Virus record (IMG/VR): IMGVR_UViG_3300031998_000072
Location: 3,428 to 67,427 of that record
Source: a virus
Taxonomy: Duplodnaviria > Caudoviricetes
DNA length: 64,000 bases
Direction: 5' to 3' (one strand)
The notes under the pieces are model-generated. The model was given only the letters and a program-made list of their open reading frames with translations. It was not told the origin of the DNA and ran no database searches. Numbering within the stretch: the first letter of the stretch is position 1; every line of letters begins with the position of its first letter. Position numbers and translations under genes: made by a program. Positions 18,822 to 34,296 of the stretch are shown here, piece by piece.

Positions 18822-20621
18822 TCAGCCCTGATTCTGAACAGACTTCTCGAGAACGATTGCAGAATAAGGCTTTGTAAGAGCACCTGAGCAACGTGTCTCG
18901 ATGAGATACTTCTGCTGGTTGTAGTCGATATCGAAGTCATCGAACATGCTGATAGCGCCACCCTTATCTGCACCAACATTATAGTCGTTAAGGTTGACGA
19001 TAATACCCATAAGAGTATTTGTATAAGTATTTCCACTCTTTGTAACCTGTCTTGTAAGGTTCTCCATTACAGGAACAGTAACAATCTTAGAAACGCGCAT
19101 TGCTGTAGCAACTTCAGCCTCAGTCTTATAAAGCTTGTGACCGATAGAGTCCTCAAGGAGGAGAATATCAGTAAGGTTGTCCTCTGTTGTGAAGAGAACA
19201 GGGTTGCCAGAACCTCTATAATCCTTTCTAGCCTTAATTGCTGCCTTAATGAAGTTCTTAGCTGTAGCATCGTCATCAGCACCAACTGTAACTTCCTTCT
19301 TGAGGCAGAAGAGATCAGCTTCCTTCCAGATAGGACGGATGTTGTCTTCATTGATCTTGTCATCATCAGAAGCAAGTCTTCCATCACCAACGAGAATAGC
19401 ACGAGCAATTTCCTCGTCGAGCATAACTCTCATCTCTGCCTTGATCCAAGCAACTACATCGAAATCCGTAATGTCGATAATGTCATCACGATCGAGCTTC
19501 TGCTTCTTATAGATTGTTGTAGGGGTTGTTGTTCTCTTAAGCAGTGAGAATACTTCCTCTTTCTTCAGGTTGCCCTTAATGTAACCCTTAGCCCTTGCTT
19601 CATCCTCAGTGATATCAGCAAACATGGACTTAATTCTTGAGAAAGGTGACTTATGAACTCCGCTCATGACTGTGGAGACCCACTCCATCTTTCTGGAAAT
19701 GAACTCGGGCTTATCTGTAAAGGTCTTAGCCTCAGGGAACAGCCAGTCAATGTCTTTAATACCATAATCATCAGCATGAGCAAGGAAAGAATCTCTAAGA
19801 GATCCGAACTTCTTACCATCATTGATGATGGTCTCGATCTGAGAATGTGTGAGCTCAGCCTGATCTGCAGCGCCCGTGTACTCTTCAGAATTGTCAAATA
19901 CGTTGTGCTTCATTTCTTTTTCTCCTTCATCTTCTGTTTCTTTTTCGCCACCCTTTTCGGCAGCAACTCCAACAAGGTACATCATTACCTTCTTCTGTTC
20001 TTCGTTCATTGTATCAATGACATCCTGAACAGTCTTTTCCTTTGCGCCAGAATCTTCGGCCATCTTCTTTTCCTCCTGTTTATCTTCGGATTCAGCGTGC
20101 TCAATAACTTCTTCATTTTCTTCCTCGGAATGCTCAATAGAATCCTCAACGTCTTCTGTTTCACCTCCAAGATTGTCGATGAAGTCATCGTTGTAGATAA
20201 CCGCCTCATCTGATTCACCATCTTCGCCATGAGCCATAGCAATATTGTCAATCATAGCTCCAGGATTTGCTCCTGCAATTACAAGACTGACTTCTCTGAT
20301 GGCGCCATGAAGAACATCACCAGACTTCTGCACAAGCTTATTAGCATAGATAGAAAGCTGGTTTACATCACCATGGAGGACAAGCTGCTTTGCCTGCTTA
20401 GCAGGTTCTGTCTCATTAAATGAGCAGTAAGCATACATTCCATCAGATTTCTCTTCAAGAAGTGCATGACCCAAAACATTCATCGGATCTCCATGCTGGT
20501 GCTGCCATACGAGAGGAACAACCTTTCCATTGCATTCCTTAAATGCACCTGCTCTGATAGTTCTACCATCCGAACACTTAAGATCATTCCTAGTGGCATA
20601 ACCACTAAAATCGTACTTCAT
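18822..20621 (-). CDS. prohead protease - major capsid protein fusion (HK97 fold)
   Basis: N-terminal protease (FSGYATRNDLKCSDGR...VPLVWQH...EVSLVIAGANPGA), acidic linker, C-terminal capsid domain (FDDFDIDYNQQKYLIETRCSGAL). Confidence 0.9.
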   Translation of the reverse strand: MKYDFSGYATRNDLKCSDGRTIRAGAFKECNGKVVPLVWQHQHGDPMNVLGHALLEEKSDGMYAYCSFNETEPAKQAKQLVLHGDVNQLSIYANKLVQKSGDVLHGAIREVSLVIAGANPGAMIDNIAMAHGEDGESDEAVIYNDDFIDNLGGETEDVEDSIEHSEEENEEVIEHAESEDKQEEKKMAEDSGAKEKTVQDVIDTMNEEQKKVMMYLVGVAAEKGGEKETEDEGEKEMKHNVFDNSEEYTGAADQAELTHSQIETIINDGKKFGSLRDSFLAHADDYGIKDIDWLFPEAKTFTDKPEFISRKMEWVSTVMSGVHKSPFSRIKSMFADITEDEARAKGYIKGNLKKEEVFSLLKRTTTPTTIYKKQKLDRDDIIDITDFDVVAWIKAEMRVMLDEEIARAILVGDGRLASDDDKINEDNIRPIWKEADLFCLKKEVTVGADDDATAKNFIKAAIKARKDYRGSGNPVLFTTEDNLTDILLLEDSIGHKLYKTEAEVATAMRVSKIVTVPVMENLTRQVTKSGNTYTNTLMGIIVNLNDYNVGADKGGAISMFDDFDIDYNQQKYLIETRCSGALTKPYSAIVLEKSVQNQG

Positions 20622-20647: not shown

Positions 20648-21913
20648 TTAAATTTGATTAATCGGAGTATTTCCAATAGAGTCGTCATTACCTGTAACAA
20701 CAGGATTGCTACCCGCCTCTTCTGGAGATTGATTAATATTCTTATTACTTAACTCATTAGCTCTCTGATCATTAACCGGCTTGTAACCAATAATACCTCT
20801 AACTTCGTTTGAAGAAAGAATCGCATTACGAGTAAACTTGTCAGCAATGTCGGCTATCTTATCTGTAGGAGTCATACTAAATGGATTACTAAAGAACATA
20901 ATAGCCTGATTCTGTGATCGAGCCGTCTTAGTTAAGAATTTTCTAGACATTTCTTCAATAATAGCTGAAACAATTGGCTCAATTGTTCTAGATTGGTAAT
21001 TCAACATCTCTTCAGGAGAAGCAGTACCGTCGAATACACCTTTTGTCATACCAAGCTGATTATAGAGCATTTCAGTAAGATACTGTATCTGATTAAACAT
21101 TGTATTCTCTACAGATCGATTCAGCTGTGTTATATGTTCTGTACCATCTGTATATGCAATACCATATTTAGAATTAGATAACTGTTCCTCAATGTCTTTA
21201 CGTCTACGTTCTGCTTGTTCTCTTCTAGCTTCAGTCTTTATTACATAAGGCAAACCAAGAATAAGATCAAGTTTGCCTGAGCCTGACTGTTCATCGACAG
21301 CATCAAGAAGATTTAACTTTCTAATAAGTCGCTTTGCTACTGAATTCGGTTCATTCATTACTGAATAAAGAGGATTTTCAATCAGAGCGACCATCTTTTT
21401 AGGAAGTATCTTTTCTTCATGCTTACCAGTTCTATCATTGTAAAGTTTTACCTTTACATGCTGTGGAAACCATTCAACAACACTACCAACTCTCATCGTC
21501 TGAATGTCATATGATCCAGTTTTAAGAGGATTTAGTGTAGTGTCTACCGGAACAATTACAACGCATCCTTCATCAAACATTGACATAACAACATCCTGAA
21601 TAAAAGCACGAGATGTTTGGTCAATATTTGCTTCTGTTGTAAGAGCATAATTAAGACCAGATTTAATTGTATCAACATAATGACCGTTTGCATCTGTTTT
21701 AACATGCTCTATATCAAGCTTTGCTACATCAATAGCAATTCGAGTATAGATAGCTGTTACAATTGTCTTTTCTGTTCCACGGGTCGGACGAAACATATCT
21801 GGTCGTCTAGTATTACTAGGACCAAGATCTATATAACGTTTATCCTCCGTAGGATCTTTGTTCATGAAGGCATTCCAAGAGTGCTTGAGCCTTTCACCAA
21901 AAGTCAATCCCAT
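20648..21913 (-). CDS. portal protein (HK97 family)
   Basis: SIVTAIY.RIAIDVA-like motif, KLDLILGLPY, NEVRGIIG; located upstream of the capsid gene. Confidence 0.9.
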   Translation of the reverse strand: MGLTFGERLKHSWNAFMNKDPTEDKRYIDLGPSNTRRPDMFRPTRGTEKTIVTAIYTRIAIDVAKLDIEHVKTDANGHYVDTIKSGLNYALTTEANIDQTSRAFIQDVVMSMFDEGCVVIVPVDTTLNPLKTGSYDIQTMRVGSVVEWFPQHVKVKLYNDRTGKHEEKILPKKMVALIENPLYSVMNEPNSVAKRLIRKLNLLDAVDEQSGSGKLDLILGLPYVIKTEARREQAERRRKDIEEQLSNSKYGIAYTDGTEHITQLNRSVENTMFNQIQYLTEMLYNQLGMTKGVFDGTASPEEMLNYQSRTIEPIVSAIIEEMSRKFLTKTARSQNQAIMFFSNPFSMTPTDKIADIADKFTRNAILSSNEVRGIIGYKPVNDQRANELSNKNINQSPEEAGSNPVVTGNDDSIGNTPINQI

Positions 21914-21919
21914 TTTGAA

Positions 21920-23050
21920 TTACCTTCCTTTATTTTTCTTTTTAACACTTGCTGGCAAATAACCTGCAATATTATTTGAATTTTTTCCTAATAAATCATT
22001 TAAAGCCTCATTTACTCCTGCTTTAACACCTTTTTCAGCTTCAGTCATTAATGTTCCTGTATGCGATTTTACTGTATTTACCGCAGCAGTGTATAATTTG
22101 TCTGCTGCTTTATTTCCAGAATTTGTTAATCTATTATAGAAATCTCTATTTATGTCATCTGAACTTCTAATTTTTGATGCATTAGAATCTTGAGATGCTG
22201 TACTTTTTTTAACTTCCCACTGTTGCCCTTTTATACCAGTTCCACTTGGTTTAGTTGACGATTCTTTTACATCATTTTTATTTCCACCAAACATTTTTTC
22301 AGCTCTTTCTTTTACATCTTTTAAATGTTTCTCCTGATATGCAACATTAGTTTTTAGTTCTCTTTCAGCAGCTTGAGAATTAAAATTACGAGCTTGAGCT
22401 TTTGTTAATGCAATATCTGCGGTCTTCTTTTCTATATCGAGTTTATTATCTTTATTTTCGAAAGCTTTTGAAACAACACTTTTAGTAATATCCGGTAAAG
22501 TTTTAACGGCCAAATCAGCAACAAATTTACCAGTTGGACCTTCAAAGAATCTATCAGCTCTAGCTAATGCACCATTTGGATTTGAAGCAAGTGCATACTG
22601 TTTATTATATTCGGCTTGTAATTTAAGACGATCGATTGCTCTTTGAAGTTCATCGTCAGACATGTTTTTTGTTTTTCCAAAACCATGTCCACCTGGTCTT
22701 CCTTGCCTATCTAATTTAGCATTTTCTTTTTTATTAAGTCTATCAAACTTTCCTTGCTCTTTTCTAGCAAGTCTCATTGTTTTAGCATTTTCTTTAATGC
22801 CATGTCTTTCTTCCTTAGCAGATCTAGTAGCTTTTTCTTTTTTTGCTCTAGATTTTAAATCTGCTTTGTACTTCTGTGTGTTATAAGAGATTTTTGCTTT
22901 TGACCGTTCATCTCCATAACCATAATGTTCTCTACCTTCTGGCGTTAGAGAACCATCTTCGTTTTGAAACCGACGATGCCCCCATCTTTGTCCAGGTATT
23001 CCCCAATGGTATAGCTCGTCATCGAAGACATAATTTGGCTGTTTACTCAT
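21920..23050 (-). CDS. HWG/KWG-tag (DUF7211-like) protein, Lys-rich, putative internal virion protein
   Basis: ELYHWGIPGQRWGHRRFQNEDGSLTPEG; KNMSDDELQRAIDRLKL. Confidence 0.7.
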   Translation of the reverse strand: MSKQPNYVFDDELYHWGIPGQRWGHRRFQNEDGSLTPEGREHYGYGDERSKAKISYNTQKYKADLKSRAKKEKATRSAKEERHGIKENAKTMRLARKEQGKFDRLNKKENAKLDRQGRPGGHGFGKTKNMSDDELQRAIDRLKLQAEYNKQYALASNPNGALARADRFFEGPTGKFVADLAVKTLPDITKSVVSKAFENKDNKLDIEKKTADIALTKAQARNFNSQAAERELKTNVAYQEKHLKDVKERAEKMFGGNKNDVKESSTKPSGTGIKGQQWEVKKSTASQDSNASKIRSSDDINRDFYNRLTNSGNKAADKLYTAAVNTVKSHTGTLMTEAEKGVKAGVNEALNDLLGKNSNNIAGYLPASVKKKNKGR

Positions 23051-23068
23051 TTATGTCCTCCTTATTTA

Positions 23069-23296
23069 TTATAATATAGGAGCATTAAAAAATCTATTAG
23101 TATCCTCTGCTATATTATACTTTCTTACTTGTCCATTATTCTTGCCTACAAGATAAAATGGATCTATTTCTTTATTTGGAGTATCTGTTTCAAATGCTAC
23201 AAATAAATAGTCTTTTCCATAATCTCTGCATTCTTTTACTGTCTTTATTGTTGGTAATTCTTTCTTTAATTTATTAAGTGCTTCTTCTTTAGTCAT
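23069..23296 (-). CDS. putative immunity protein for the adjacent papain-fold toxin
   Basis: 75 aa, directly downstream of the toxin; DPFYLVGKNNGQV resembles Imm35/YrhB-type motifs. Confidence 0.45.
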   Translation of the reverse strand: MTKEEALNKLKKELPTIKTVKECRDYGKDYLFVAFETDTPNKEIDPFYLVGKNNGQVRKYNIAEDTNRFFNAPIL

Positions 23297-23307
23297 AATA
23301 TTTCTCC

Positions 23308-24510
23308 TTATTTATACTTATTTACTGTAGACATTGAAATTCCAAGAAGTTTTGCAACCTCTTTTTGTGTTTTTCCAGAAGATATCAACGATTTTATTCT
23401 AGATTGCTTAGCTTCAGTTAGTATCATATTCTTAGAATCTTTTTTCTTATCTTCTTTAAAATCATACCACTTATTCTTAAACCTTCCTTCACTTTCCCAT
23501 TTATTTTGAAGTGCTATTGATGCTTGATCGTCTATTTCTTTTATTTTCTTTGAATACATACCATTAGCTATTCTTTGGCCAATTGCAATTCCAGCAAAAG
23601 GCATTCCAGTAACAGAGGTCAGTAACGCCGCACTTATTCCAATTACCCATGGTTCAACTTTAGCAGCTTTTAATTTTGCTGAATTATATTTTATATCACC
23701 TATTACATCCTCTGAATAAAATTTCTTTGCTTTTTCTTCATCAATCTTTAAATTATCAGATCTTAATGTTTCAACATTATTTGCATTCTTCATTGTTTGA
23801 TTAAAGAATTTTTTATCTGCTTTTACTATAGTACCTGGTTGCGAATCAACAAAATAAAGTTGGCCATTTTTAACTTCATAATTAAATATATGACCTCCGT
23901 TTCCGCCCTTCCAATCAACAGCAATAAAACCTCTAGTATTATCGCCATCGCTTAATAATTTATTAGTCATGTCATTATATTCATCTTTTGTCATACCAAT
24001 ACTCATCATTTTTGAACTTTCATTACTTCTAGTAGCAAAAGTTCTTGCATCTTTTGAAATTTTAGCATAATTTGGTATAACTCTTCCATATGCGCCTTTA
24101 GGATTTGATAGATATGCTTGAGCTCCTCTTAGTGATTCTTGCGCTCTTACATCATGCCCTCTTCTTCTAAGTTCATATGACATTGTACAAAAAGCACAAT
24201 TTACATTTCTATTCAAACCATATTCAAAACCTTTATTACCACCATTTACTTTTTGTATATCTTTTTGTATATCTTTAACAAACGCTTTATCGCCTTTTAT
24301 AGTACCGCCGGTTTTATATCCATAACCGCTAGATTCTTCAGATCTTCCAAATATTCTATCATCCCCAATTCTTCTACGGCGTTTTCCTTCCTCGGTATAG
24401 GTTCCATCTTCGAATTGGTATCTTCTTTCTCCCCACTTCTGGCCAGGGATGCCATAATGGATTAAATAAGTAGGATAATCAGACATTAATTTATTCCTCC
24501 TTAATTCCAA
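23308..24510 (-). CDS. DUF7211-tagged papain-fold (Tox-PL / Gln deamidase-like) toxin with C-terminal HTH (likely start 24486)
   Basis: YLIHYGIPGQKWG tag; NCAFCTMSYELRRRGHDVRA (Cys), GGHIFN (His), YFVDSQ (Asp); C-terminal GKTQKEVAKLLGISMSTVNKYK. Confidence 0.75.
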   Translation of the reverse strand: MELRRNKLMSDYPTYLIHYGIPGQKWGERRYQFEDGTYTEEGKRRRRIGDDRIFGRSEESSGYGYKTGGTIKGDKAFVKDIQKDIQKVNGGNKGFEYGLNRNVNCAFCTMSYELRRRGHDVRAQESLRGAQAYLSNPKGAYGRVIPNYAKISKDARTFATRSNESSKMMSIGMTKDEYNDMTNKLLSDGDNTRGFIAVDWKGGNGGHIFNYEVKNGQLYFVDSQPGTIVKADKKFFNQTMKNANNVETLRSDNLKIDEEKAKKFYSEDVIGDIKYNSAKLKAAKVEPWVIGISAALLTSVTGMPFAGIAIGQRIANGMYSKKIKEIDDQASIALQNKWESEGRFKNKWYDFKEDKKKDSKNMILTEAKQSRIKSLISSGKTQKEVAKLLGISMSTVNKYK

Positions 24511-25103
24511 TCACTTTTCCATTTTTTCTGATGTAACTTTTTATTCTTTACATCATATGAATAATCTATCTGATTATATTTGCTTGGTTTATCAAGTTCT
24601 GAATTAAAATCTCCAACTTCCCATAGTATATAATTTAAGGAATTCATATGCACGTCCATATATCTTTGAACCACTTTTTGCGCTTCTTCTCCAGTATCTC
24701 CATTTACTAATTTATTCGCGGTCGCCAATGAAGTATTTACATATTTTTTAATATCGTTAATTGGATTCTTTCCTTCTTTTCTTTTGCTAGCTGCATTTGA
24801 ATCATGATATTCAGTTGGATTTTTATCATTAAAATCAAATCTTTTACTAGCTCTAATATTTTCTTTAACTGAATTATACTTAGAAACCCTACTGCGATTC
24901 CCAAATGGATCTGTTTCTTTCTCAAATTTTTCGAGTTTCTTTTTATACTTGTCAGATTTTTCTGATTTATCTAAGAGATTAGCATACCTTTTTATACCTT
25001 CTGGTGTAAGTGTCCCATCCTCATTCTGAAAACGTCTTACACCCCATTTTTGACCCTGAATGCCATAATGTATAAGATATGAATGGTAATTCGATTCACT
25101 CAT
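24501..25103 (-). CDS. DUF7211-tagged protein
   Basis: YLIHYGIQGQKWGVRRFQNEDGTLTPEG. Confidence 0.7.
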   Translation of the reverse strand: MSESNYHSYLIHYGIQGQKWGVRRFQNEDGTLTPEGIKRYANLLDKSEKSDKYKKKLEKFEKETDPFGNRSRVSKYNSVKENIRASKRFDFNDKNPTEYHDSNAASKRKEGKNPINDIKKYVNTSLATANKLVNGDTGEEAQKVVQRYMDVHMNSLNYILWEVGDFNSELDKPSKYNQIDYSYDVKNKKLHQKKWKSDWN

Positions 25104-26848
25104 ACAAATGCCTCCCTATTAGCTTTATAAGCAACATAAGCATCCATTAATGCTGCGACATTATCGATTTTCTCGTCATGTCTTTGCTTAAAGAGCTTTC
25201 TGTTACCATTCGTATCTTCTAGCGTTATACAATTTCCCATTGTATAACTCATAATTTCTTGGTCGAAAATGAGCAATCTTTCTTCTGAAAGTTTCTTAAT
25301 TTCACCAAGAGGAACTGATTCTGTTCTAGCACCTTGTATAACTTTGGTCACTCCGAATGCTCCATTTTCTGCAGACCATCGTTCTACAAATCCTTGGGCA
25401 TTGTAAGGGTCAAATCCAAAACATCTTACATCATATGAACTATCATCAATAAACTTGTCAAGATCATCATAAACTTCCATCATGTCGAGAACTGTGCCCT
25501 CAAGTATTATAAGAGTTCCTTCATCAATAAACTCTTCATACTTAAGTCTAAGTGCTGCTGGAAGTTTACTAAGTGTTAGAGATGTTATATAACTTCTTGC
25601 CTTAATCCCAAATCGCTCTCTACTAAGAGGAAATAGAAAAGTAAATGCACAGAAGTCATCACCCTGTGAAAGGTCCGCTCCAAGTGCACATGGAAGATTC
25701 CAAAATTCCTGCTTTCTATGAGGCTTTGTCTCCTCGTAAGTGAAGAAGTATGTATAACCCTCCATAGGAATGTTAAATCTCTTTGCAAGAATGTCGTTTC
25801 TTGTCGATGGTGCCTGTTCGGCTCTCTCAACATCTAACTGATAGGTCTCATATGTAACCGTCTTACCAAGATTCGGATTAGCCTTAATCCACATCGAAGG
25901 GTCATTTATCTCCTTAATGTCATCAAGGGTATAATACCAAATCGATACATGCGGATTTACATATTGGCCTTTAAGAATGTCAAGCAATTCCATTTTGATG
26001 GTATCTCCAGGACCATTTCTTACCGTACCTTCTGAAGAGGTCGCAATAATGAGATAATCATCTAACTTCGAAGCGCCTTGCTCGATACAACCAATAACAT
26101 CTTCCTTAATATCTCCAGAAAGCCACTCGTCAACTGTAGCAATCTTACATCTCAAACCCTGCAATTTATCGATCGACATAGGTCTGATTTCAAGAATAGA
26201 GTTTGTAAGAAAGTTTTCAATACCTTTCTTTGTAGAAGCCAGCTTTTGACGATTTGCTTTAGAGCCTGTAGTATTTTGAAGTGAACCTTCAGTAAGAAAC
26301 TTAAACAAAGGTCCACGCGAACGCGCGATAGAAGTTCTAAACGGTGACATAACTTCTTCTGCCTGCTTCATTGTCGGCGCTACTGTAATCTGATGTGTAG
26401 TTGAAGTATCCACGCAAAGATAGAATGCCTGAATACAATAGTCATACATTGATTTTGCAGCACCTCTTGGAATTATTAGATACTGCTTATTTGTTAAGCG
26501 CTTCTTAATCATCTTCTTTTCGTAGTGGCCCTTAACTCCATTTGCAGGATCAGGCGGAATATAAACACTACGTTCTACAAAGTAATACCAACAGAATACT
26601 TGTTCTGCCCAGAGCTTAAATGTATCTAAGAGATGGAGATCATCTCCGTTTGTAAGTGTAAGTTCATTCTCACAATATTTTACAAATCCATCCATTGCGT
26701 GTTCGTCATAGTAAACGCCAGGATTTCTTATAAGATCGTCAATTCTATTCATCTCCATTGAGATATATCGATTGACTGCTATTTCTCCTCTCATTACAGC
26801 AGCTCTAAATTCACCGTAATATTTAGGAGTCGCTGTATTGGATAACAT
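25100..26848 (-). CDS. terL: terminase large subunit
   Basis: Walker A-like IIPRGAAKS, Walker B ATVDEW, nuclease GADLSQGDDF and KIDNVAALMDA. Confidence 0.93.
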   Translation of the reverse strand: MLSNTATPKYYGEFRAAVMRGEIAVNRYISMEMNRIDDLIRNPGVYYDEHAMDGFVKYCENELTLTNGDDLHLLDTFKLWAEQVFCWYYFVERSVYIPPDPANGVKGHYEKKMIKKRLTNKQYLIIPRGAAKSMYDYCIQAFYLCVDTSTTHQITVAPTMKQAEEVMSPFRTSIARSRGPLFKFLTEGSLQNTTGSKANRQKLASTKKGIENFLTNSILEIRPMSIDKLQGLRCKIATVDEWLSGDIKEDVIGCIEQGASKLDDYLIIATSSEGTVRNGPGDTIKMELLDILKGQYVNPHVSIWYYTLDDIKEINDPSMWIKANPNLGKTVTYETYQLDVERAEQAPSTRNDILAKRFNIPMEGYTYFFTYEETKPHRKQEFWNLPCALGADLSQGDDFCAFTFLFPLSRERFGIKARSYITSLTLSKLPAALRLKYEEFIDEGTLIILEGTVLDMMEVYDDLDKFIDDSSYDVRCFGFDPYNAQGFVERWSAENGAFGVTKVIQGARTESVPLGEIKKLSEERLLIFDQEIMSYTMGNCITLEDTNGNRKLFKQRHDEKIDNVAALMDAYVAYKANREAFV

Positions 26849-27189
26849 TATTCTTGCTCCTCACTTTGTCCATTATAACTACGCATAGCTGCAATAGCTC
26901 CTGCGTAAAGTTCATCAATTCTTTCCTGAGATTCAATAGCAGAGGTTTTAGCAACTACGAGTTTCTTCTGCTCTTCAAGAATCTCTTTCTCAAGTTTTTC
27001 CTTACTCGAACCAAGTTTTAAATAATGTGTAATAACTTGACTCGAAGCTGTTCCATTTCTAAGTTGTTGTTCCGCGAGATCGATAGCCAAAGATATCAGT
27101 TGGTTTTCCCTCGCTTCAGGTGTCATGACAGGAGGACTTTTAATCTCAGGCTGATCGTCAGGAACTTTGTTAATGTTTCTTCTTGCCAT
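26848..27189 (-). CDS. putative terminase small subunit
   Basis: Helical, 113 aa, coupled to TerL; TPEARENQLISLA.DLAEQQL..GTASSQVITHYLKLGS. Confidence 0.55.
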   Translation of the reverse strand: MARRNINKVPDDQPEIKSPPVMTPEARENQLISLAIDLAEQQLRNGTASSQVITHYLKLGSSKEKLEKEILEEQKKLVVAKTSAIESQERIDELYAGAIAAMRSYNGQSEEQE

Positions 27190-27354
27190 TTAAAGTCACT
27201 TCCAATCTTTACCTTTCATTTAGTTGCCTTTAGAGAAAGCAGTACAGCTTGTGTCATGTAAGCACTTAAAAACCTGACACAACTTGAAAGGAGCATGGCC
27301 CGCACCATAATTAGCCACAACTTTGCTATACTGCTCTCACTAAAAGCAACTAAA

Positions 27355-27526
27355 AAGTTTTGTAGGGTAAGGATTTGCACCTTACAGCATAACGATTATC
27401 TAGCCCACGTTAACCCGGTTTCAACCTAATCTAATAGGAAACACCAGCTCCTGTTTTATGAAACGTGTTCTCATACGTGAAAAGAACTCTGAGGCGCGTC
27501 TACCTATTCCGCCACCTACAAAACTT
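27355..27526 (-). ncRNA. tRNA-shaped RNA with ~85-nt insertion replacing the anticodon loop
   Basis: 12-bp terminal stem, Leu-type D arm GCG-GAATAGGTAGA-CGC, T arm GTAAGG-TGCAAAT-CCTTAC, variable-arm-like hairpin. Confidence 0.65.
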
Positions 27527-27539
27527 GATTATTCAGTTG

Positions 27540-27944
27540 TTAGTTTCGACTCATATGCTCAATCGCGCTGCGGTAGCTTTCACGCTCCTCTGGAGTACGT
27601 GCATTCATCATCATTTTGTTAAGATGATCAATCATTTCCTGTTTACCATCATCACGACTCGTATAACGACCCATCATATCCCTTCCTCTAGCATAAGAGT
27701 TAGGCTCTCTGTATCTGTCATATGAAGCACGAGTCATTGAGTAGTCCTCATCGTATCCGCGTGAATAGCCTCTCATCCAATCTTCTGGTTCATAGTTCTT
27801 CATCGCTTCTACTGTTTCAATGTCTTTTACAACATCGATCATTTCTCCGATAATGGCTACTTCATTAGGAGTCCAAGTTTCTTTCTTACAAAGTTCCTTG
27901 AGCTCATCTTCCATTCTATCTTTAATTTTGTAAATAATGTGCAT
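27540..27944 (-). CDS. hypothetical protein with R/G/Y/D-rich low-complexity centre (six-gene module)
   Basis: RGYSRGYDEDYSM...RGRDMMGRYTSRD between helical ends; RBS AGGAGG. Confidence 0.75.
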   Translation of the reverse strand: MHIIYKIKDRMEDELKELCKKETWTPNEVAIIGEMIDVVKDIETVEAMKNYEPEDWMRGYSRGYDEDYSMTRASYDRYREPNSYARGRDMMGRYTSRDDGKQEMIDHLNKMMMNARTPEERESYRSAIEHMSRN

Positions 27945-27961
27945 ATATGCCTCCTCCTTTC

Positions 27962-28456
27962 TTAGGATTGTCTCTTCTTAATAGAGACGCTTCCATCTAT
28001 AATGTTTATAGAAGGAGTTGGCGTAGTTGTGCCATCAGTTACACCGCTGACATACTCTACAGATGCCGTTATGCAGCAGCATCTAGGTACATCGATTGTT
28101 GCTCTGCTTGTTACATTACCATACTCGTCTACTGCAGCAGGAGTAAGAATAGATCTACTACCTTGCTGAGTTTCTCCAGCAATGACAACTGCTGTCGCGA
28201 TAGGACCAACAGTACCACCAGTAGGAATGGCAATATTACCAGTGAACTCTACATCATATGTAGATACGCATTCACCTTTGCCTCTAAGAATAAAAATTCC
28301 AGATCCATTTTGATGGATTACATTACCATTTGGGCACGGATTAAGATCGAGAAATGGAATAGCAGTATTAAGAGCAACAGATTCAACTGTATCTCTTGTT
28401 AAATAATCTGCCATAGCGGTCACCTCACTTAGCCGCAACCACAATTGTTGTTGCAA
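27962..28456 (-). CDS. beta-sandwich protein, BclA-CTD-like (six-gene module; likely start at MADYL)
   Basis: All-beta pattern with CCC; RBS GAGGTG before MADYL. Confidence 0.6.
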   Translation of the reverse strand: MQQQLWLRLSEVTAMADYLTRDTVESVALNTAIPFLDLNPCPNGNVIHQNGSGIFILRGKGECVSTYDVEFTGNIAIPTGGTVGPIATAVVIAGETQQGSRSILTPAAVDEYGNVTSRATIDVPRCCCITASVEYVSGVTDGTTTPTPSINIIDGSVSIKKRQS

Positions 28457-29193
28457 GTAAAGATAGGTGTTCTACCATAGACAGGAGTTGACGGTACAGG
28501 GCAGTTAGAAAGCCTATTATAGAGTGCGTCAACTTCATCAGTAAGACCCTTCTGAATGAATGCGTTGCTCTGAGCAGCAGTAAGCTGTCTCTCAAGGTCT
28601 GCAATCTTCTCATTCTTAGAGTCGATCTTGTCGTTGCACATCTGGTCTTTAATAGACTGAATGCCACCATTAATAGCGTTAAGAAGCAGCTGAGTATTCT
28701 GTGTATCAGTTGTTCTTGTATCGCAGGCTTCGCTAGCAATTGTAGCGCCAAGGTTAGCTGTAGCAAGACGGTTATCAGCACAGCACTGAGCAAGCTGAGC
28801 AGAAAGAGTGTTAATGTTCTGACCAATGAACTGAGTGTCAGTAAATCTCTGATTCATAGAGTCAATAGTTCCATTACATCTAGCAACTTCAGCATTTGCA
28901 AAGCCAGAGGTGATAGCAGACTGGATTCCGCTAAGTTGACTTGATAAACCTGAGTTATCAAATCCACGGTTAACATCATTCTGCGTCTGTGTGTTCCAGA
29001 GATAGGGCATTACTCCTTCAGAAGCATAACCGCCACCAAAGCCATTACCCCAGCCATTACCGCCGAGCAGAAGAAGGAGAATAATCCAAGCCCAATCTCC
29101 GCCCCAGCCGAAGCCGTTGCCGTTACATCCGTTGTAGCCGCCATACATAGGAGCCACAGGCATAACCATGTTGTCTGTTCCATTAGAAACCAT
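28429..29193 (-). CDS. Gly/Asn/Cys-rich TM plus coiled-coil protein (six-gene module)
   Basis: GFGWGGDWAWIILLLLLGGNGWGNGFGGG, QLAQCC, C-terminal CPVPS...CNNNCGCG. Confidence 0.8.
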   Translation of the reverse strand: MVSNGTDNMVMPVAPMYGGYNGCNGNGFGWGGDWAWIILLLLLGGNGWGNGFGGGYASEGVMPYLWNTQTQNDVNRGFDNSGLSSQLSGIQSAITSGFANAEVARCNGTIDSMNQRFTDTQFIGQNINTLSAQLAQCCADNRLATANLGATIASEACDTRTTDTQNTQLLLNAINGGIQSIKDQMCNDKIDSKNEKIADLERQLTAAQSNAFIQKGLTDEVDALYNRLSNCPVPSTPVYGRTPIFTCNNNCGCG

Positions 29194-29300
29194 TTCAGTT
29201 CCTCCTTTAAAAGTATTTTTCCATTGTTGCGCAACAAATAGAAACTTGTTTGGAGGTGCGGAATGGTGCGAATGGTGCGTAGTGCTTAAATATTAAGTTG

Positions 29301-29519
29301 TTATCTCATGAAATTTTGCATTTGCATGATTCTATTGACTTGATCCTGAGTTACCTGACCTGTTGTTAGCAAATGTTGAAGTATCTCATTAGGATTAGTC
29401 ATGCCTTGTGGTACACTATATTTAGTACTCAACATAGCAACCGGATCTTGCTTTAGTTGAGACAGCATTGTAAGCATATTAGGTCTTTGTTGAAACTGCT
29501 GAAATATCGGACTGCTCAT
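29301..29519 (-). CDS. small Q/M/N-rich protein (six-gene module)
   Basis: Overlaps the upstream gene by ATGA. Confidence 0.7.
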   Translation of the reverse strand: MSSPIFQQFQQRPNMLTMLSQLKQDPVAMLSTKYSVPQGMTNPNEILQHLLTTGQVTQDQVNRIMQMQNFMR

Positions 29520-29884
29520 TGTCTGTCCTCCTTAGCAGATTGATTCTTGTAATTATTCTGCCTTGGCTTCAACATTTCCTTAATCTCATTCTTGAAATTA
29601 TCAAAGTCAGATTTGCTTACATAATTATTAACTTGTTCAGGTGGATTCTCGATTCGCTCTACGTAATCAAGAATTCTAACTGGCAATGGTCTGCCAAACT
29701 GGTCAGTTGTCTTTGTATATATCACCGGAAGTTCTGTATCGATCAACACAGCGAACTGACCGGGAGCAACTGGATAAGCTTTGGCAGCTGCTTCACCTTG
29801 TACGTAAGCGCAAATGGGTGAATTAAAATTCTGTTGAGGGTAGTAAGCTCCTTGTAAAGACTGATTGTACCGCACCATAATCAT
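29516..29884 (-). CDS. hypothetical protein (six-gene module; likely start at MVRYN)
   Basis: YVQGEAAAKAYPVAPG...IYTKTTDQFGRP; C-terminal YVSKSDFDNFKNEI. Confidence 0.75.
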   Translation of the reverse strand: MIMVRYNQSLQGAYYPQQNFNSPICAYVQGEAAAKAYPVAPGQFAVLIDTELPVIYTKTTDQFGRPLPVRILDYVERIENPPEQVNNYVSKSDFDNFKNEIKEMLKPRQNNYKNQSAKEDRQ

Positions 29885-30279
29885 TTACCTTCTTTCTTAA
29901 AGTAATATAAAGGGATTTTGTTTCCACTATCCCAAGAATCATAGTAGTCGCCATCGATTACAGTAATAACGTGTGTTCCGGTGGCTAAAACATAAAGTCC
30001 TTTAGGATGGTCTCTACAAAAATCTCTAACAGTGTAGCAATCTGGACATTCATTTGGGATAATGTATCTCATGAAACCAGACTTTCGTAATAACGCAGGC
30101 CAATTTTCATTGGATGATGGCATCAGCTTGTTTTTAAATCCAAATTCAGCCAACATGCTATAAACATCATCCCAGTTTTTTCCAAAAGCCAACGTCAATG
30201 CTCTAATAACACAATCTCCAGTATTGTTTCCATATGGATTTGGGTTATAGAATATCCATTTCATATCACTTTGACTCAC
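29881..30279 (-). CDS. small papain-like (C39-like) Cys-His-Asp protein (six-gene module)
   Basis: NPNP...GDCVIRAL (Cys), THVITVIDG (His), YYDSWD (Asp). Confidence 0.55.
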   Translation of the reverse strand: MSQSDMKWIFYNPNPYGNNTGDCVIRALTLAFGKNWDDVYSMLAEFGFKNKLMPSSNENWPALLRKSGFMRYIIPNECPDCYTVRDFCRDHPKGLYVLATGTHVITVIDGDYYDSWDSGNKIPLYYFKKEGK

Positions 30280-30344
30280 TTTACTATAGATTTATGGTGC
30301 GTTTCTATAGTATCCTTACAAGTTTTAACATGCTTTTACAGCCT

Positions 30345-30409
30345 AGAAACTCCGCGAATACGTTCAGTATCAGCCGTAGCCAGTAGGGTTACTACCCACG
30401 GAGTTTCTA
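30345..30409. repeat. 11-bp inverted repeat enclosing two mini-hairpins
   Basis: TAGAAACTCCG / CGGAGTTTCTA. Confidence 0.7.
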
Positions 30410-30439
30410 CGCGGTAAAATGTAAATATAAAAATATCCA

Positions 30440-30500
30440 CCGGGGAATTTTCTAAGACCGCCGCGATGGCTATGGGGGGTATTATTTTCGAGACCCCCCT
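30440..30500. other. candidate cos / genome-end region
   Basis: GC-rich island (CCGGGG, GACCGCCGCGATGG, G6...C6 hairpin) in the largest non-coding gap, between the last replication-side gene and the first packaging-side gene. Confidence 0.45.
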
Positions 30501-30559
30501 CTAGGTACCTAATTCGATCCTCTACAGGGGATATCCTGGGTTTGATCCAAGATGCCTAT

Positions 30560-30660
30560 AAAAGCTCAAATTAACCTAAAAGGTGCAAAATTACTAAAAA
30601 TTAGTAAAAATTGCAAAAATTTTGATAAAAAGATTAAAATTCGTAAAATTAATTCAAAAT
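30560..30660 (+). repeat. phased A-tract array (bent DNA)
   Basis: 11 A3-5 tracts, most followed by TT, at ~9.6-bp mean spacing. Confidence 0.75.
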
Positions 30661-30696
30661 TGTTTAATTAATTGAATTAATTTTTTAATGAAACTA

Positions 30697-30859
30697 TTTA
30701 ATTATTGTTTAATTAAAATTTATTAGCATTAAAACAGTTATTTATACTTGAAAGGAGATTTCGCATGAACCTACACAAAGGCGTATGACAGATGATTTGA
30801 GGTTGACTATAAGCATAACCATAATAATGCTAATAAACTTTAATTAAACAATAATTAAA
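30697..30859. repeat. 35-bp inverted repeat (1 mismatch) flanking a 93-bp core
   Basis: 30697-30731 versus 30825-30859. Confidence 0.85.
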
Positions 30860-30896
30860 AGTTAAGAAAACGATTAATTATTGTTTAAAAAATGAA

Positions 30897-30940
30897 GATG
30901 GGGCCTTTTCTACGGTGCGGGGTAGTAGTATGACCCCATC
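30897..30940 (-). terminator. possible terminator of the RNAP operon
   Basis: GATGGGG/CCCCATC stem downstream of the 30977 stop, with a TTCATTTTTT run on the minus strand. Confidence 0.4.
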
Positions 30941-30976
30941 CTCAAGGGTATATAGAGAAGGTGTATGCCCCTATTA

Positions 30977-31249
30977 CTAGGGCTCCTCTATAGCAATGTA
31001 CTCGACCCCTTCTGGAAGTCTAGGATCAGGGTATTCTGCTGTGAGCTTGAGTATTTCTCTTACTGCATCATTACTAAACTTCTGATACAGTGTTGCTGGC
31101 ATCTCTATGTCTGTTTGAGACATACGGGCCAGGAACTCTTCACAACAGTACCCTTTTTGATGATCATAGTTTCTCCAATCAGTGTATTGAGTAAAGGGGT
31201 TGTAAGGGTTGTCTGTTGTAGATAGGAGGATTGCTTTTTCTTTTTCCAT
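30977..31249 (-). CDS. conserved hypothetical phage protein
   Basis: LSTTDNPYNPFTQY.DW..YD..KGY motif; RBS AGGAG. Confidence 0.7.
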   Translation of the reverse strand: MEKEKAILLSTTDNPYNPFTQYTDWRNYDHQKGYCCEEFLARMSQTDIEMPATLYQKFSNDAVREILKLTAEYPDPRLPEGVEYIAIEEP

Positions 31250-31263
31250 ACAATTCTCCTTTC

Positions 31264-34200
31264 TTACTTATACTTATTGACAGTTGAGGTTGAAATACCA
31301 AGGAGCTCTGCTACTTCTGTCTGTGTGTGTCCTGCAGCAAGTAGGGCTTTGATTCTCGACTGCCTAGCTGGTGTAATGCTAATCTCTTCAATTGGAGTTG
31401 CATACTTTGTAACAGTATCCAAATCTGTGTTGTCAAGTATTTCTTTTAACACGGACTTCCTTATGGCTCCTGCCTGTATCGCTTCCCATTCTCTTGGAGA
31501 GATTGTAATAGTCTGTTTCTTAGCACCAACCATTAATCTAGCTCCAGAAATGGCTTGATTAGCATATTTCTTTTTCTTTTCTTTGTCTTCTTTGATTGAA
31601 GGATCATCTTGCATCTTCTGTTTAAGAATAATATTAGCTAAAGCTGTTGCTTTTCTTTCAGCAGGTTTGTTAATCAATGCTGTTTTAAGACTCTTCTTAA
31701 GAGAATCAACTTCTGGCTTATACTTTAAAGCTGCTGCTTCATTATAAGGCTGATCTTCAACTTCAAGACTTGCTTTTCTTGCCTTATTTGCAAGAGCTTT
31801 AAGTTGATTGGCATAATTTGCATATGTTCTTTCAACTTCTGTTCCAATATGATCAGGACCAGATAACAATTCTCTTGCATCTTTAGCTTCTGCCATCTTA
31901 GTAGACTTAATAGTTCTTCTTTCTTGAGTCCACATCGGCTTTCCATTCTCATCGAGAACAGGAACTTTCTCACCTTTAACTGTTTTCATTACAGGTTTAT
32001 TGTAATATTCTTCAGTTTCAATATAGCGTTTTTCTCCTGTTTCTGGATCGATAGCACCACCTTCTGATTGTCTAGCCAATCTTCTAGTGTTAACTATTTG
32101 TGGAGACTTAGCTCTTGAAATTATTGTTTCAGCTCCGCCACCTTGTTGGTACTTATCTTTTAATGCTTGAATGCCGTTTTCAATATACGATCTACGAATA
32201 TCAAGGTTATGTTTTTCAGCATCAATAACTACCATTGAATGCTTAACTGCTCTAACAATTTCACTATTTGAAGCACCAAACTGCTGCATGTCAGTTATCA
32301 AGTTTGTTACTTTGCCCATTTCAATTTGGCAAGTTTGATGCTTAGGCTTTGGGGTTCCATCAGGTTTAGCATAAATTCCTGTATCAAAGTCTTTCAAACT
32401 AGCAAATGCAGGAAGAGTATTATCAATCCATTTAATCTCTTTATTATTGTTTGGAATAACAATTACTGTATCACCATCAAAGTCAGCACCAGACAACTGA
32501 TTTGCAACATGTTTATTAATCATGACAGCATCTCTTGGACTAGTACCAATTATTGATTGGCATTCTTTATTTGAGTTATTAACAATAAGATGAGGAATTT
32601 CAAACTTTCCTCCATGAGGATATCTAACAAGAACTACTTCTTCGCCATCTTTAAAATTAGGAGCATAAATCTCATTATCTTTCAAAGTAACAGAAGGAAT
32701 GATAACAGATGTAGCTTGTCTAGGAAGCGCTGCCGCTTTCAATCTTACTGCATCTGAATCGCACTTTTCTGCAAATGGCTCTAATAATCTTTTCTTAACT
32801 GCTGGATTTGTAAGTTGATTAATTCTTTCAAATTGATCTTCCTTAAGTTTAAATGCTTCATCAAGCTGTCTTTTTACAAGAGGATTAGGTTGCTTAGCTA
32901 AGAATTCTGAAGCAAGTGACTTTTGCCATTTAGACCAGTCGCCTTCTTCATTTACTTTATTAATACAACTAAGTTTCTTTTCTCCAGTATGAATATCAAT
33001 ATACTCATGCTGTCCACCAGCAAGCAGTTTAGAATCAGCTTCATCAGAACCAAGTTCTTCTGAAAGCTTAACCGATGCACCAAATGGATTATCTTTGTCA
33101 ACTGTTCCTGTTATCTTTCCAGTTTCAGGATCTTGTGAAAGACCTTTCATCAACTTAAGATGTTCAAGCTTATCTGTGTATTTACCAACAGACTCATGCT
33201 TTGAATTGACAATAATATCAATACCTTTAGGAACATCTTTAAAAGCATCTGCATTATATACAGCCATGCCTTTAATATATCTAGTTCCATCAACTGCAAT
33301 ACGAACCTGAGCATATGTTGAATTCTGCAACGACAAATCCTGAACTCCAGGACGAAGCTCAATAAGACCATCTCTTTCAAGACCGCCATGAGCTCCATCA
33401 CGAATATAAATTCTATCAGAATTAATAGATTCAGGAGTTCTTATACCAAGCCAAGTCTTACCATTATCAATAGAATGATACTCACCAAGAGTTTCAAGCT
33501 TGTTATCCTCAAGTACAGCTTTAACAGCTTCACTGTAAGTTGTTCCAGGAGGACATAAAACCTGAATTGATGTCTTTTGGCCAGGTAATTGTACTTGTTT
33601 AGCAGAAATATACTTAAGTTCATATCCTTGATCTTTTAAAGCAGCAATTGCAGTATTGAGTCTGGTTCTTGTAACACCAGCTAATAGCTCAGCAGATTTA
33701 CCAACATCAATGAATTGCTTTTGATCAACGGCTTCTTTGAGCATCTTAGTAGTATTATCAATTGCTTCTGCTTTCTCTCTAGCATTTGGAGCTAACAGAT
33801 TTCTAACAGTAGACTCTTTTGATTTGTCGCCAAACATCTTTTCTGCAATTGCAGTATTAGACATTCCTTTCTCATGAAGCTTAAGTGCTGTATTGATCTC
33901 ATTTTGCTTCTTAGCTTTAAGAGATACGGAATTTCTAGCTCTTAACTCATCAACAGTCATTTCTTTAGGCTGAAGCTTTCCATTTTCATCTAATTTAGGA
34001 ATTCGGTCACCCTTTTTGATTCCTAACTCAGGATTATCTTTTTCAGCAACAGTCATTTTATAACTATTCTTTGGAGTTAACATCTTTGCTATCTCTTTTG
34101 GAGTATAGCCTTGGCCTCTAAGTTTTGCTACTTCATCACAAAACCAAGGTTCTCTATCATATTCGTTGTCTCCATAATCAAAACCAGCAAACCAATCCTC

Positions 34201-34296
34201 ACGCTGATAAGGATTGTCACCGGAACCCCAAGGATAACGACCAGAATGACGCTTAGTGCCATAGTGCATCAAATAATCTTCATTTTCACTCATCAC
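31264..34296 (-). CDS. single-subunit two-barrel RNA polymerase (YonO / cellular RdRP-like) with HYG tag and HTH domains
   Basis: DPBB-A motif DGLIEL...YAQVRIAVDGTRYIKGMAVY; DPBB-B motif VLVRYPHGG...QLSGADFDGD; N- and C-terminal HTHs. Confidence 0.8.
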   Translation of the reverse strand: MMSENEDYLMHYGTKRHSGRYPWGSGDNPYQREDWFAGFDYGDNEYDREPWFCDEVAKLRGQGYTPKEIAKMLTPKNSYKMTVAEKDNPELGIKKGDRIPKLDENGKLQPKEMTVDELRARNSVSLKAKKQNEINTALKLHEKGMSNTAIAEKMFGDKSKESTVRNLLAPNAREKAEAIDNTTKMLKEAVDQKQFIDVGKSAELLAGVTRTRLNTAIAALKDQGYELKYISAKQVQLPGQKTSIQVLCPPGTTYSEAVKAVLEDNKLETLGEYHSIDNGKTWLGIRTPESINSDRIYIRDGAHGGLERDGLIELRPGVQDLSLQNSTYAQVRIAVDGTRYIKGMAVYNADAFKDVPKGIDIIVNSKHESVGKYTDKLEHLKLMKGLSQDPETGKITGTVDKDNPFGASVKLSEELGSDEADSKLLAGGQHEYIDIHTGEKKLSCINKVNEEGDWSKWQKSLASEFLAKQPNPLVKRQLDEAFKLKEDQFERINQLTNPAVKKRLLEPFAEKCDSDAVRLKAAALPRQATSVIIPSVTLKDNEIYAPNFKDGEEVVLVRYPHGGKFEIPHLIVNNSNKECQSIIGTSPRDAVMINKHVANQLSGADFDGDTVIVIPNNNKEIKWIDNTLPAFASLKDFDTGIYAKPDGTPKPKHQTCQIEMGKVTNLITDMQQFGASNSEIVRAVKHSMVVIDAEKHNLDIRRSYIENGIQALKDKYQQGGGAETIISRAKSPQIVNTRRLARQSEGGAIDPETGEKRYIETEEYYNKPVMKTVKGEKVPVLDENGKPMWTQERRTIKSTKMAEAKDARELLSGPDHIGTEVERTYANYANQLKALANKARKASLEVEDQPYNEAAALKYKPEVDSLKKSLKTALINKPAERKATALANIILKQKMQDDPSIKEDKEKKKKYANQAISGARLMVGAKKQTITISPREWEAIQAGAIRKSVLKEILDNTDLDTVTKYATPIEEISITPARQSRIKALLAAGHTQTEVAELLGISTSTVNKYK

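Follow-up and report, generated by a model that had tools for sequence, protein, structure and literature searches.

A short peptide shared by otherwise unrelated proteins of a siphovirus lineage is a probable tag for loading proteins into the phage head

Introduction

Why should several phage proteins that otherwise have nothing in common begin with the same short peptide? This question is raised by a 64-kb stretch of viral DNA (the window), comprising bases 3428-67427 of the 67-kb IMG/VR virus record IMGVR_UViG_3300031998_000072, which CheckV rates as complete. Three genes lying between the gene for the large terminase subunit (terL) and the portal gene start with the motif L.H(W/Y)GI.GQ(K/R)WG.RR(F/Y)Q.EDG..T.EG (hereafter the tag), and an RNA polymerase gene of the same window starts with a variant of it. 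A preliminary description, made from the DNA sequence alone, had proposed that the tag is a capsid-sorting signal by which a polymerase, a toxin and helper proteins are packaged for injection together with the DNA. Our analysis suggests that the shared peptide is probably an address tag for loading proteins into the head, analogous to the capsid-targeting sequence (CTS) of phage T4. In T4, a short conserved N-terminal peptide is the sole common part of diverse, fast-evolving small basic head proteins that are injected with the DNA (PMC3012670).

Results

The tag is conserved as a peptide

The window was searched in all six frames by regular expression. The strict core was found at three places only, each of them the N-terminus of a tagged gene, and the motif shared by the three terL-portal genes was thus recovered exactly as first written. 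Relaxing the pattern to H[WYF]G..WG added one place only, the N-terminus of the polymerase gene (31264-34296). The resemblance to the Pfam family DUF7211 (PF23847) that had been suggested at the outset was borne out by a six-frame search of the whole 67-kb record, in which the family model gave four matches, namely the three tagged genes and the polymerase (13.2 bits, E 0.007). One of the window tags exceeds the gathering cut-off of 27 (27.3 for a 200-amino-acid (aa) protein, against 21.4 for a papain-fold protein and 19.9 for a 376-aa protein), and the model scores 35-54 bits in phages Gordon, Pepy6, Vardy, Kardashian and 1706, all above the cut-off. A hidden Markov model (HMM) was also built on 22 tags from phages of the lineage described below, the three window tags among them; with this model the window tags score 52-57 bits (E approximately 1e-15 to 1e-16 in a search of 2609 open reading frame (ORF) fragments). 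Pfam gives no function for DUF7211, and literature searches with the family name, lineage virion data and genus names returned nothing on the tag.

The consensus of 405 unique Firmicute tags is [D/N]-[Y/E]-L-x-H-[H/Y]-G-I-[K/L]-G-[Q/M]-K-W-G-V-R-R-[Y/F]-Q-N-x-D-G-[S/T]-L-T-x-x-G. Within it the L is conserved in 92% and the H in 99% of tags, and the residues G, G, W and G in 99-100%; the median distance from the initiating Met to the His is 11 residues. Actinophage tags retain the first part only (DDFLxHYGVKGMKWGxR), which is followed by a Ser/Gly-rich linker. Approximately two thirds of the residues that are identical among the three window tags are encoded by differing synonymous codons, and therefore the conservation reflects selection on the peptide rather than recent duplication of the DNA. 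A role of the tag DNA as a recombination site for cassette swapping was considered and rejected, since the synonymous sites are saturated. In an AlphaFold2 (AF2) model of the 200-aa protein, residues 11-40 have confidence values (pLDDT) of 77-93 without adopting a fold (pTM 0.33), while the remainder is helical. As modelled, then, the tag is a peptide of approximately 20-45 residues without a folded domain.

The tag and the polymerase mark one phage lineage

By sequence, the tag corresponds to DUF7211 and is a hallmark of a single phage lineage, to which belong Lactococcus phage 1706, Faecalibacterium phage Oengus and the actinophage clusters AM, AU, AW, DJ, CC, EL and BI. The supercluster described by Koert et al. 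(bioRxiv 10.1101/842583) is the same lineage; these authors noted an RNA-dependent RNA polymerase (RdRP)/YonO-like protein with helix-turn-helix (HTH) domains, and mention neither a shared tag nor a role in the virion.

By tblastn against 50,697 phage records, the polymerase was found in 250, including phages of Arthrobacter, Gordonia, Streptomyces, Lactococcus, Curtobacterium, Microbacterium, Rhodococcus and Faecalibacterium together with gut siphovirus contigs. In the same records the window (Firmicute) tag matches 118 and an Arthrobacter tag matches 185, the latter at 531 places. Every tag-matched record belongs to a polymerase-carrying genus, no genus falls outside the polymerase set, and tag and polymerase counts are equal for Arthrobacter (95), Gordonia (55) and Rhodococcus (4). 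An even sample of approximately 400 Clostridia genomes gave a similar picture: DUF7211 is present in two, one being the genome on which the sample was centred, and the polymerase is present in the same two, lying 2-3 kb from a tag in both. Protease-capsid fusions such as that of the window also exist in other phages, e.g. Arthrobacter cluster AN. That the tag is tied to such fusions as such was rejected because no tag match falls outside the polymerase-bearing genera.

Pattern-seeded scans by tag collected 154 loci, 79 from IMG/VR and 75 from bacterial genomes or metagenome-assembled genomes (MAGs), and 146 of them contain homologues of the terL, portal or protease-capsid gene of the window. 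Each locus has 1-10 tags; in sum there are 526, on 508 ORFs. The tagged ORFs share a strand and lie between a small ORF, the candidate small terminase subunit gene (terS), and the portal gene, on either side of terL. Those inspected loci that extend more than approximately 6 kb upstream of terL have the polymerase there, including one within a complete bacterial genome. Among named phages, Arthrobacter phage Gordon has five tagged ORFs, ReqiPepy6 eight (all seven of its TerL-portal genes among them), Vardy four, Kardashian three and FP_oengus one. Orf7 of 1706 contains two diverged copies of the tag (DUF7211, 41.8 bits in two stretches). Beyond these, a profile of the three window tags matches 26,415 clusters (50% identity) among 1.84 billion representatives at E <= 0.001, and its top matches contain 2-5 tag-led units.

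Several individual records of the lineage deserve mention. The annotated start of Gordon gp6 (4346; L001:4295-4825) is a Met within the tag core GMKWG, and the ORF with the full tag begins at 4295, overlapping gp5; such a mis-call probably recurs in related records. A block with the order exonuclease, polymerase, terS, tags, terL and portal lies inside a complete Clostridiales genome (L115, AP018533.1, 346642-366743; also G001:C1:296152-319729), with a polymerase fragment approximately 55 kb upstream of its polymerase and an extra DUF7211 match approximately 32 kb upstream. The lineage is usually termed lytic and may have integrated or carried forms. A Clostridia homologue of the polymerase (G306:C36:21718-23232) has one in-frame TGA, its N-terminal part being on another contig, and this copy may be broken or recoded.

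The start of the tag resembles sites in the capsid-fused protease

In the fusion of prohead protease and capsid protein encoded by the window, 10 of the 13 His residues have L, I, V or M at position -2. Its acidic linker (residues 131-282; 48 D/E versus 14 K/R in 151 aa, net charge -34) contains six [LIVM]-x-H-[small] sites, and the last of these, SFLAH-ADDYGIKDIDW, immediately precedes the capsid domain at the predicted scaffold-capsid junction. The same bias holds across the lineage. In 100 unique protease-capsid fusions, L, I, V, M or F stands at -2 of 62% of His residues against a background of 26%, and the full context [LIVMF]-x-H-[GASNT] applies to 52% compared with 22% in control ORFs. 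At five positions of the linker, one of them the junction, these sites are retained by 80-93% of homologues, and a junction of the form ...[F/V]-L-x-H-G-I-x-x-I-[D/E]-[Y/W]-L-F-P is common to Firmicute phages, actinophages and 1706. Outside the tags, the cargo (i.e. the remainder of the tagged proteins) is depleted in this context, which is found at 6% of its His residues only. When the tag profile was aligned with the fusions, its best stretch was one of four linker sites in 54 of 64 proteins.

The prohead protease of T4 recognises (L/I)-x-E and the herpesvirus assemblin (V/L)-x-A. By analogy, the L-x-H pattern looks like the cleavage rule of the capsid-fused protease, with a hydrophobic residue at P3 and His at P1. 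Since the tag would thereby be a putative protease substrate, the tagged proteins would be expected inside the prohead.

The RNA polymerase carries a variant tag

The polymerase of the window matches phrog_4291 over its full length (E 8e-301), has the catalytic GADFDGD invariant at residues 602-608 (the D-x-D-G-D loop of the double-psi beta-barrel class) and ends in a C-terminal HTH after the core. An AF2 model (pTM 0.61) gave QDE-1 (E 3e-9), plant RDR2 and Thermus phage P32 gp64 as top Foldseek matches; the structure of gp66 of the crAss-like phage phi14:2 (6vr4) was matched at rank 38 with a non-significant E of 0.019.

The preliminary description had reported a variant tag on this enzyme, and the relaxed pattern, the six-frame DUF7211 search and a comparison of profiles all recovered it. 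Its consensus, [D/E]-x-L-x-H-Y-G-[TVMI]-[KPL]-R-x-S-G-R-Y-P-W-G-S-G, is present in 38 of the 39 polymerase-sized ORFs with D-x-DGD that were collected, the exception being truncated by the end of its locus, and also at the N-termini of the polymerases of 1706, Gordon, Pepy6 and FP_oengus. H10 and Y11 are near-invariant, and G12, S17-Y20 and G23-G25 are invariant. The tag profile and the profile of the polymerase N-terminus are reciprocal best non-self matches among the 2609 ORF fragments, at approximately 10 bits. Residues 1-47 have pLDDT below 50 in the AF2 model, yet are among the most conserved of the protein; disorder combined with high conservation is characteristic of linear motifs for partner binding.

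At the other end of the protein, the last approximately 35 residues of the polymerase (31264-31371) and of the papain-fold protein (23308-23415) are approximately 75% identical. Both ends are resolvase-type HTHs (...QSRIK.L...G.TQ.EVA.LLGIS.STVNKYK), and this common DNA-binding end might link the two proteins to one DNA site.

A two-tag protein and the polymerase are labelled as structural in phage 1706

In the record of phage 1706 (EU081845), the plain product name 'structural protein' is given to orf6, 7, 11, 12, 62, 71 and 75, and names based on homology are marked 'putative'. Orf7 is the protein with two tags and orf75 is the polymerase with the variant tag, so that both kinds of tagged protein were deposited as structural. 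The ReqiPepy6 record repeats the label for homologues of the 1706 proteins.

The cargo is diverse, basic and mostly without known domains

The four cargo parts in the window had been described as unrelated, and this holds: they are a Lys-rich helical protein, a Gln_amidase papain-fold protein, a 200-aa helical protein and a two-barrel RNA polymerase. The papain-fold cargo matches PF15644 with 43.7 bits (cut-off 24.1) and retains the motifs NCAFC and GGHIFN, i.e. the Cys-His pair; it is a candidate deamidase.

Across the lineage, grouping of 486 cargo parts at 30% identity gives 250 clusters, and the median length of a cargo part is approximately 200 aa. A catalogue of the domains fused to DUF7211, which the preliminary description had suggested making, yielded Gln_amidase in 4 of 148 diverse representatives and almost no other cargo domain. 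The remaining Pfam matches were one HTH, one portal domain (an apparent fusion) and two single weak matches, to FRB_dom (E 2e-4) and DUF3173 (E 5e-4). Lys makes up 12.9% of the cargo against 6.9% of controls, nearly all tagged proteins (97%) have a positive net charge (median +15), and a transmembrane (TM)-like hydrophobic segment is present in 30% of them versus 11% of control ORFs. The match between basic cargo and acidic linker could serve to hold the cargo in the prohead.

In phages of clusters DJ, CC and BI, the gene upstream of terL encodes a protein in which an internal tag comes after a 2H phosphoesterase ('2'-5' RNA ligase') domain. Examples with internal DUF7211 are found in ReqiPepy6 (L003:10681-12276), Vardy (L014:8565-10244) and Kardashian (L015:2374-3393). 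The 2H phosphoesterase class includes phage nucleases that degrade cyclic-nucleotide immune signals.

Some tagged proteins depart from the usual size. Proteins of 500-1570 aa (P0047, P0051, P0055 and others) consist of 2-5 units, each made up of a tag, a Lys-rich helix and a Gly/Ala-rich hydrophobic segment, and from their sequence they look like polyproteins of single-tag genes. In one MAG contig (L097:4396-6069), a tagged ORF of approximately 190 aa continues in frame into the portal gene, which is either a natural fusion or the result of a lost stop codon.

Discussion

How the tag would act

What we infer is that the tagged proteins bind to the prohead, are cleaved after His and are injected. 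Late in infection, the tagged proteins, the polymerase included, would be recruited into the assembling prohead. The tag would consist of a short leader ending in L-x-H, followed by the conserved (H/Y)GIKGQKWGxRR core. The L-x-H would mimic predicted cleavage sites of the capsid-fused prohead protease, both those in the acidic linker of the fusion itself and the one where scaffold and capsid meet. Because of this mimicry, the tag would dock as, or beside, a protease substrate and would probably be cut, and proteins with several tags would be cut to single units. The basic cargo would then be retained inside, probably by the acidic linker first and by the packaged DNA later, and would leave with the DNA at infection. 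What is delivered would be a two-barrel RNA polymerase that starts phage transcription without the host enzyme, together with hypervariable small basic proteins and occasional enzymes (the papain-fold deamidase here, a 2H phosphoesterase in the actinophage relatives).

The proposal of a capsid-sorting signal has thus gained indirect backing, from the co-occurrence of tag and polymerase in one lineage, the position of the tagged genes between terS, terL and portal, the labels in 1706 and the L-x-H of the scaffold linker. The depletion of L-x-H in the cargo and the basic, hypervariable character of the cargo speak for head loading as well. The proposal has to be amended in that the tag is not strictly N-terminal, that most cargo is small, basic and without known domains, and that toxins and enzymes are rare. 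A wider proposal can be advanced only tentatively: a siphovirus lineage of Firmicutes and Actinobacteria might use a peptide that mimics the junction, cut after L-x-His, to load its polymerase and basic effectors for co-injection, and might thereby, from the first minute, do without host transcription and possess a tag portable to foreign proteins.

Alternative explanations

A number of observations speak against head loading by this route. The tag profile scores the linker sites of the protease-capsid fusions at no more than 2.4 bits, with no significant alignment, and what tag and junction have in common is L-x-H, their position and, in some members, YGIK...W. We know of no described precedent for an S78 protease that cuts after His. 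In several actinophages the product of the gene upstream of terL carries the tag internally, and other proteins contain it up to five times; it is therefore no simple N-terminal signal. The similarity of the variant tag on the polymerase is weak (approximately 10-13 bits) and lies mostly in D-x-L-x-HYG-x-K and the later WG. That the 'structural protein' labels of 1706 go back to virion proteomics is an assumption, and two proteins so labelled, orf62 and orf71, lie outside the head module and carry no tag. Lastly, the membrane-like segment in 30% of the cargo would suit a role after ejection as well. The peptide could be a conserved module of internal or ejection proteins that acts after injection or on the DNA (as a membrane or wall anchor, in DNA binding or in exit through the portal and tail channel) and not an address for the head. 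The excess of TM-like segments over controls, the strongly basic cargo, the internal or repeated tags and the lack of a globular domain in most cargo would all fit such a module. It is harder to see why the same peptide should then be attached to unrelated globular enzymes, the papain-fold protein and the 2H phosphoesterase, with the variant on a 1000-aa polymerase without membrane features; moreover, L-x-H is present in the scaffold linker and depleted in the cargo, which indicates an event within the prohead. We regard this explanation as rather unlikely.

If L-x-H is a cleavage site, the motif might be nothing but a site for processing by the prohead protease, with charge or other contacts recruiting the proteins to the head. 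Proteins with 2-5 tag-led units exist, and a near-invariant L-x-H also recurs at the sites of the scaffold linker, as would be expected of a mere processing site. Against this, the (H/Y)GIKGQKWGxRR that follows the His is as conserved as L-x-H itself (G, W and G at 99-100%), far beyond what is seen at the linker sites, and this core must therefore do more than be cut, which renders the explanation distinctly improbable. A further doubt concerns the polymerase, whose N-terminus might resemble the tag by chance or for another cause, the enzyme being made after infection and only the small proteins entering the head. The low scores (13.2 bits with Pfam, E 0.03-0.07 with the local HMM) and the differing core (KRHSGRYPWG versus KGQKWG) would allow this, and YonO of SPbeta, a relative, is to our knowledge not known as a packaged protein. 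Nevertheless, we consider it unlikely: the two profiles are reciprocal best non-self matches, all full-length orthologues seen have the variant, across two bacterial phyla, the N-terminus is disordered yet highly conserved, orf75 of 1706 was deposited as a structural protein, and in copies that are circular or integrated the polymerase gene lies directly beside the head module.

Comparison with known systems

The reading of the tag as a head-loading address has its closest analogue in the T4 CTS of IPI-IPIII and Alt, which is likewise a conserved short peptide on otherwise unrelated, co-encoded proteins (here 508 ORFs in 154 loci). In T4 the peptide has the prohead-protease site (L/I)-x-E at its end; here L-x-H closes a leader of approximately 11 residues. 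The scaffolding core of T4, a myovirus, is a separate structure, whereas the phages described here are siphoviruses with a HK97-type protease fused to the capsid protein. Moreover, the conserved part reaches well past the putative cut, the tag is at times internal or repeated, and an RNA polymerase is among the cargo. General PHROG and Pfam scans returned no T4-related family, and the tag was judged unrelated in sequence to the T4 CTS without comparison to a T4 sequence.

The MuF-domain polymorphic toxins of temperate phages, reportedly the subject of work by Jamet et al. in 2017, also combine a head-associated module with variable toxin domains, are encoded next to the portal gene and are thought to deliver effectors by injection. 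The difference is that the tag is a peptide and not a folded domain. A six-frame search of the whole 67-kb record for Phage_Mu_F (PF04233) gave no match at E <= 1, in agreement with the earlier statement that the locus lacks a MuF gene. Encapsulins are loaded by short terminal peptides on unrelated cargo which bind the inside of a HK97-fold shell; they differ in being cellular compartments without DNA, protease or ejection, and their peptides are unrelated in sequence.

Phage polymerases carried in the particle start early transcription in several groups, i.e. the crAss-like phi14:2 (gp66), N4 (the virion RNA polymerase, vRNAP) and the phiKZ group. The polymerase described here is two-barrel like gp66, and is distinguished by its length of approximately 1000 residues, its HTH domains and its occurrence in siphoviruses of Gram-positive hosts; its presence in the virion is suggested by a database label only. 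Ruprich-Robert and Thuriaux (PMC2919709) listed the 1706 protein among the YonO-like two-barrel polymerases and also covered the phiKZ-group virion enzyme. In the giant phages SPN3US and phiKZ, the prohead protease removes propeptides from many head-internal proteins at a short consensus site (PMC7411985, PMC5694885). Their consensus site and phage type differ from those considered here, and we know of no common extended tag described for these ejection proteins.

If the peptide is a head-loading tag, it would account for almost every 'hypothetical' gene that lies between terminase and portal in this lineage, which is widespread among phages of gut, dairy and soil. These siphoviruses would then inject their own RNA polymerase, as do N4 and the crAss-like phages, and the large, fast-evolving pool of injected proteins would be a source of anti-defence candidates. 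A short peptide of this kind would also be usable to load chosen proteins into phage heads.

Organisation of the locus

The minus strand carries all genes of the window. Along this strand, replication genes are followed by an exonuclease, the polymerase, a few small genes, the small ORF, terL and the three tagged genes, and then by the portal gene, the protease-capsid fusion and the tail genes. The coordinates of the features are given in Table 1.

Table 1. Features of the tag locus, numbered from the first base of the window.
Feature	Coordinates	Strand	Basis
Two-barrel (YonO / QDE-1-like) single-chain RNA polymerase, 1010 aa	31264..34296	-	Pfam/PHROG scans, model, Foldseek
Variant tag of the polymerase, DYLMH-YGTKRHSGRYPWGSGDNPYQ	34204..34296	-	Regular expression, HMM, Pfam
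Small ORF upstream of terL, candidate small terminase subunit (terS)	26848..27189	-	Place conserved in related loci
Terminase large subunit (terL)	25100..26848	-	Pfam/PHROG scans
Tagged gene 1, 200 aa: N-terminal tag and basic all-helical cargo without known domain	24501..25103	-	DUF7211 27.3 bits; lineage HMM 57 bits
Tag of gene 1 (residues 1-41; L-x-H at residues 10-12)	24981..25103	-	Sequence
Tagged gene 2, 392 aa from ATG at 24486 (alternative start TTG at 24510)	23308..24486	-	PF15644 43.7 bits; DUF7211 21.4 bits
75-aa ORF immediately downstream of the papain-fold gene	23069..23296	-	No family match (Pfam, PHROG)
Tagged gene 3, 376 aa, net charge +26: tag and Lys-rich helical cargo	21920..23050	-	DUF7211 19.9 bits; lineage HMM
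Degenerate second tag-like stretch GIKGQQWEVKK, residues ~272-287 of gene 3	22190..22237	-	Weak HMM match, E 0.58
Portal protein	20648..21913	-	Pfam/PHROG scans
Prohead protease (S78) fused to major capsid protein	18822..20621	-	Pfam/PHROG scans
Acidic scaffold-like linker, residues 131-282 of the protease-capsid fusion	19776..20231	-	Sequence

The product of tagged gene 2 is made up of the tag, the papain-fold Gln_amidase domain, a hydrophobic segment and the C-terminal HTH. The 75-aa ORF placed after this gene is a candidate immunity or inhibitor protein; comparison with the N-terminal extensions of related Gln_amidase proteins found no similarity. Tagged gene 3 is an orthologue of FP_oengus gp69, the tagged neighbour of the portal gene in that phage (31% identity over 172 aa, E 6e-16), and its degenerate second tag-like stretch parallels the two tags of 1706 orf7.

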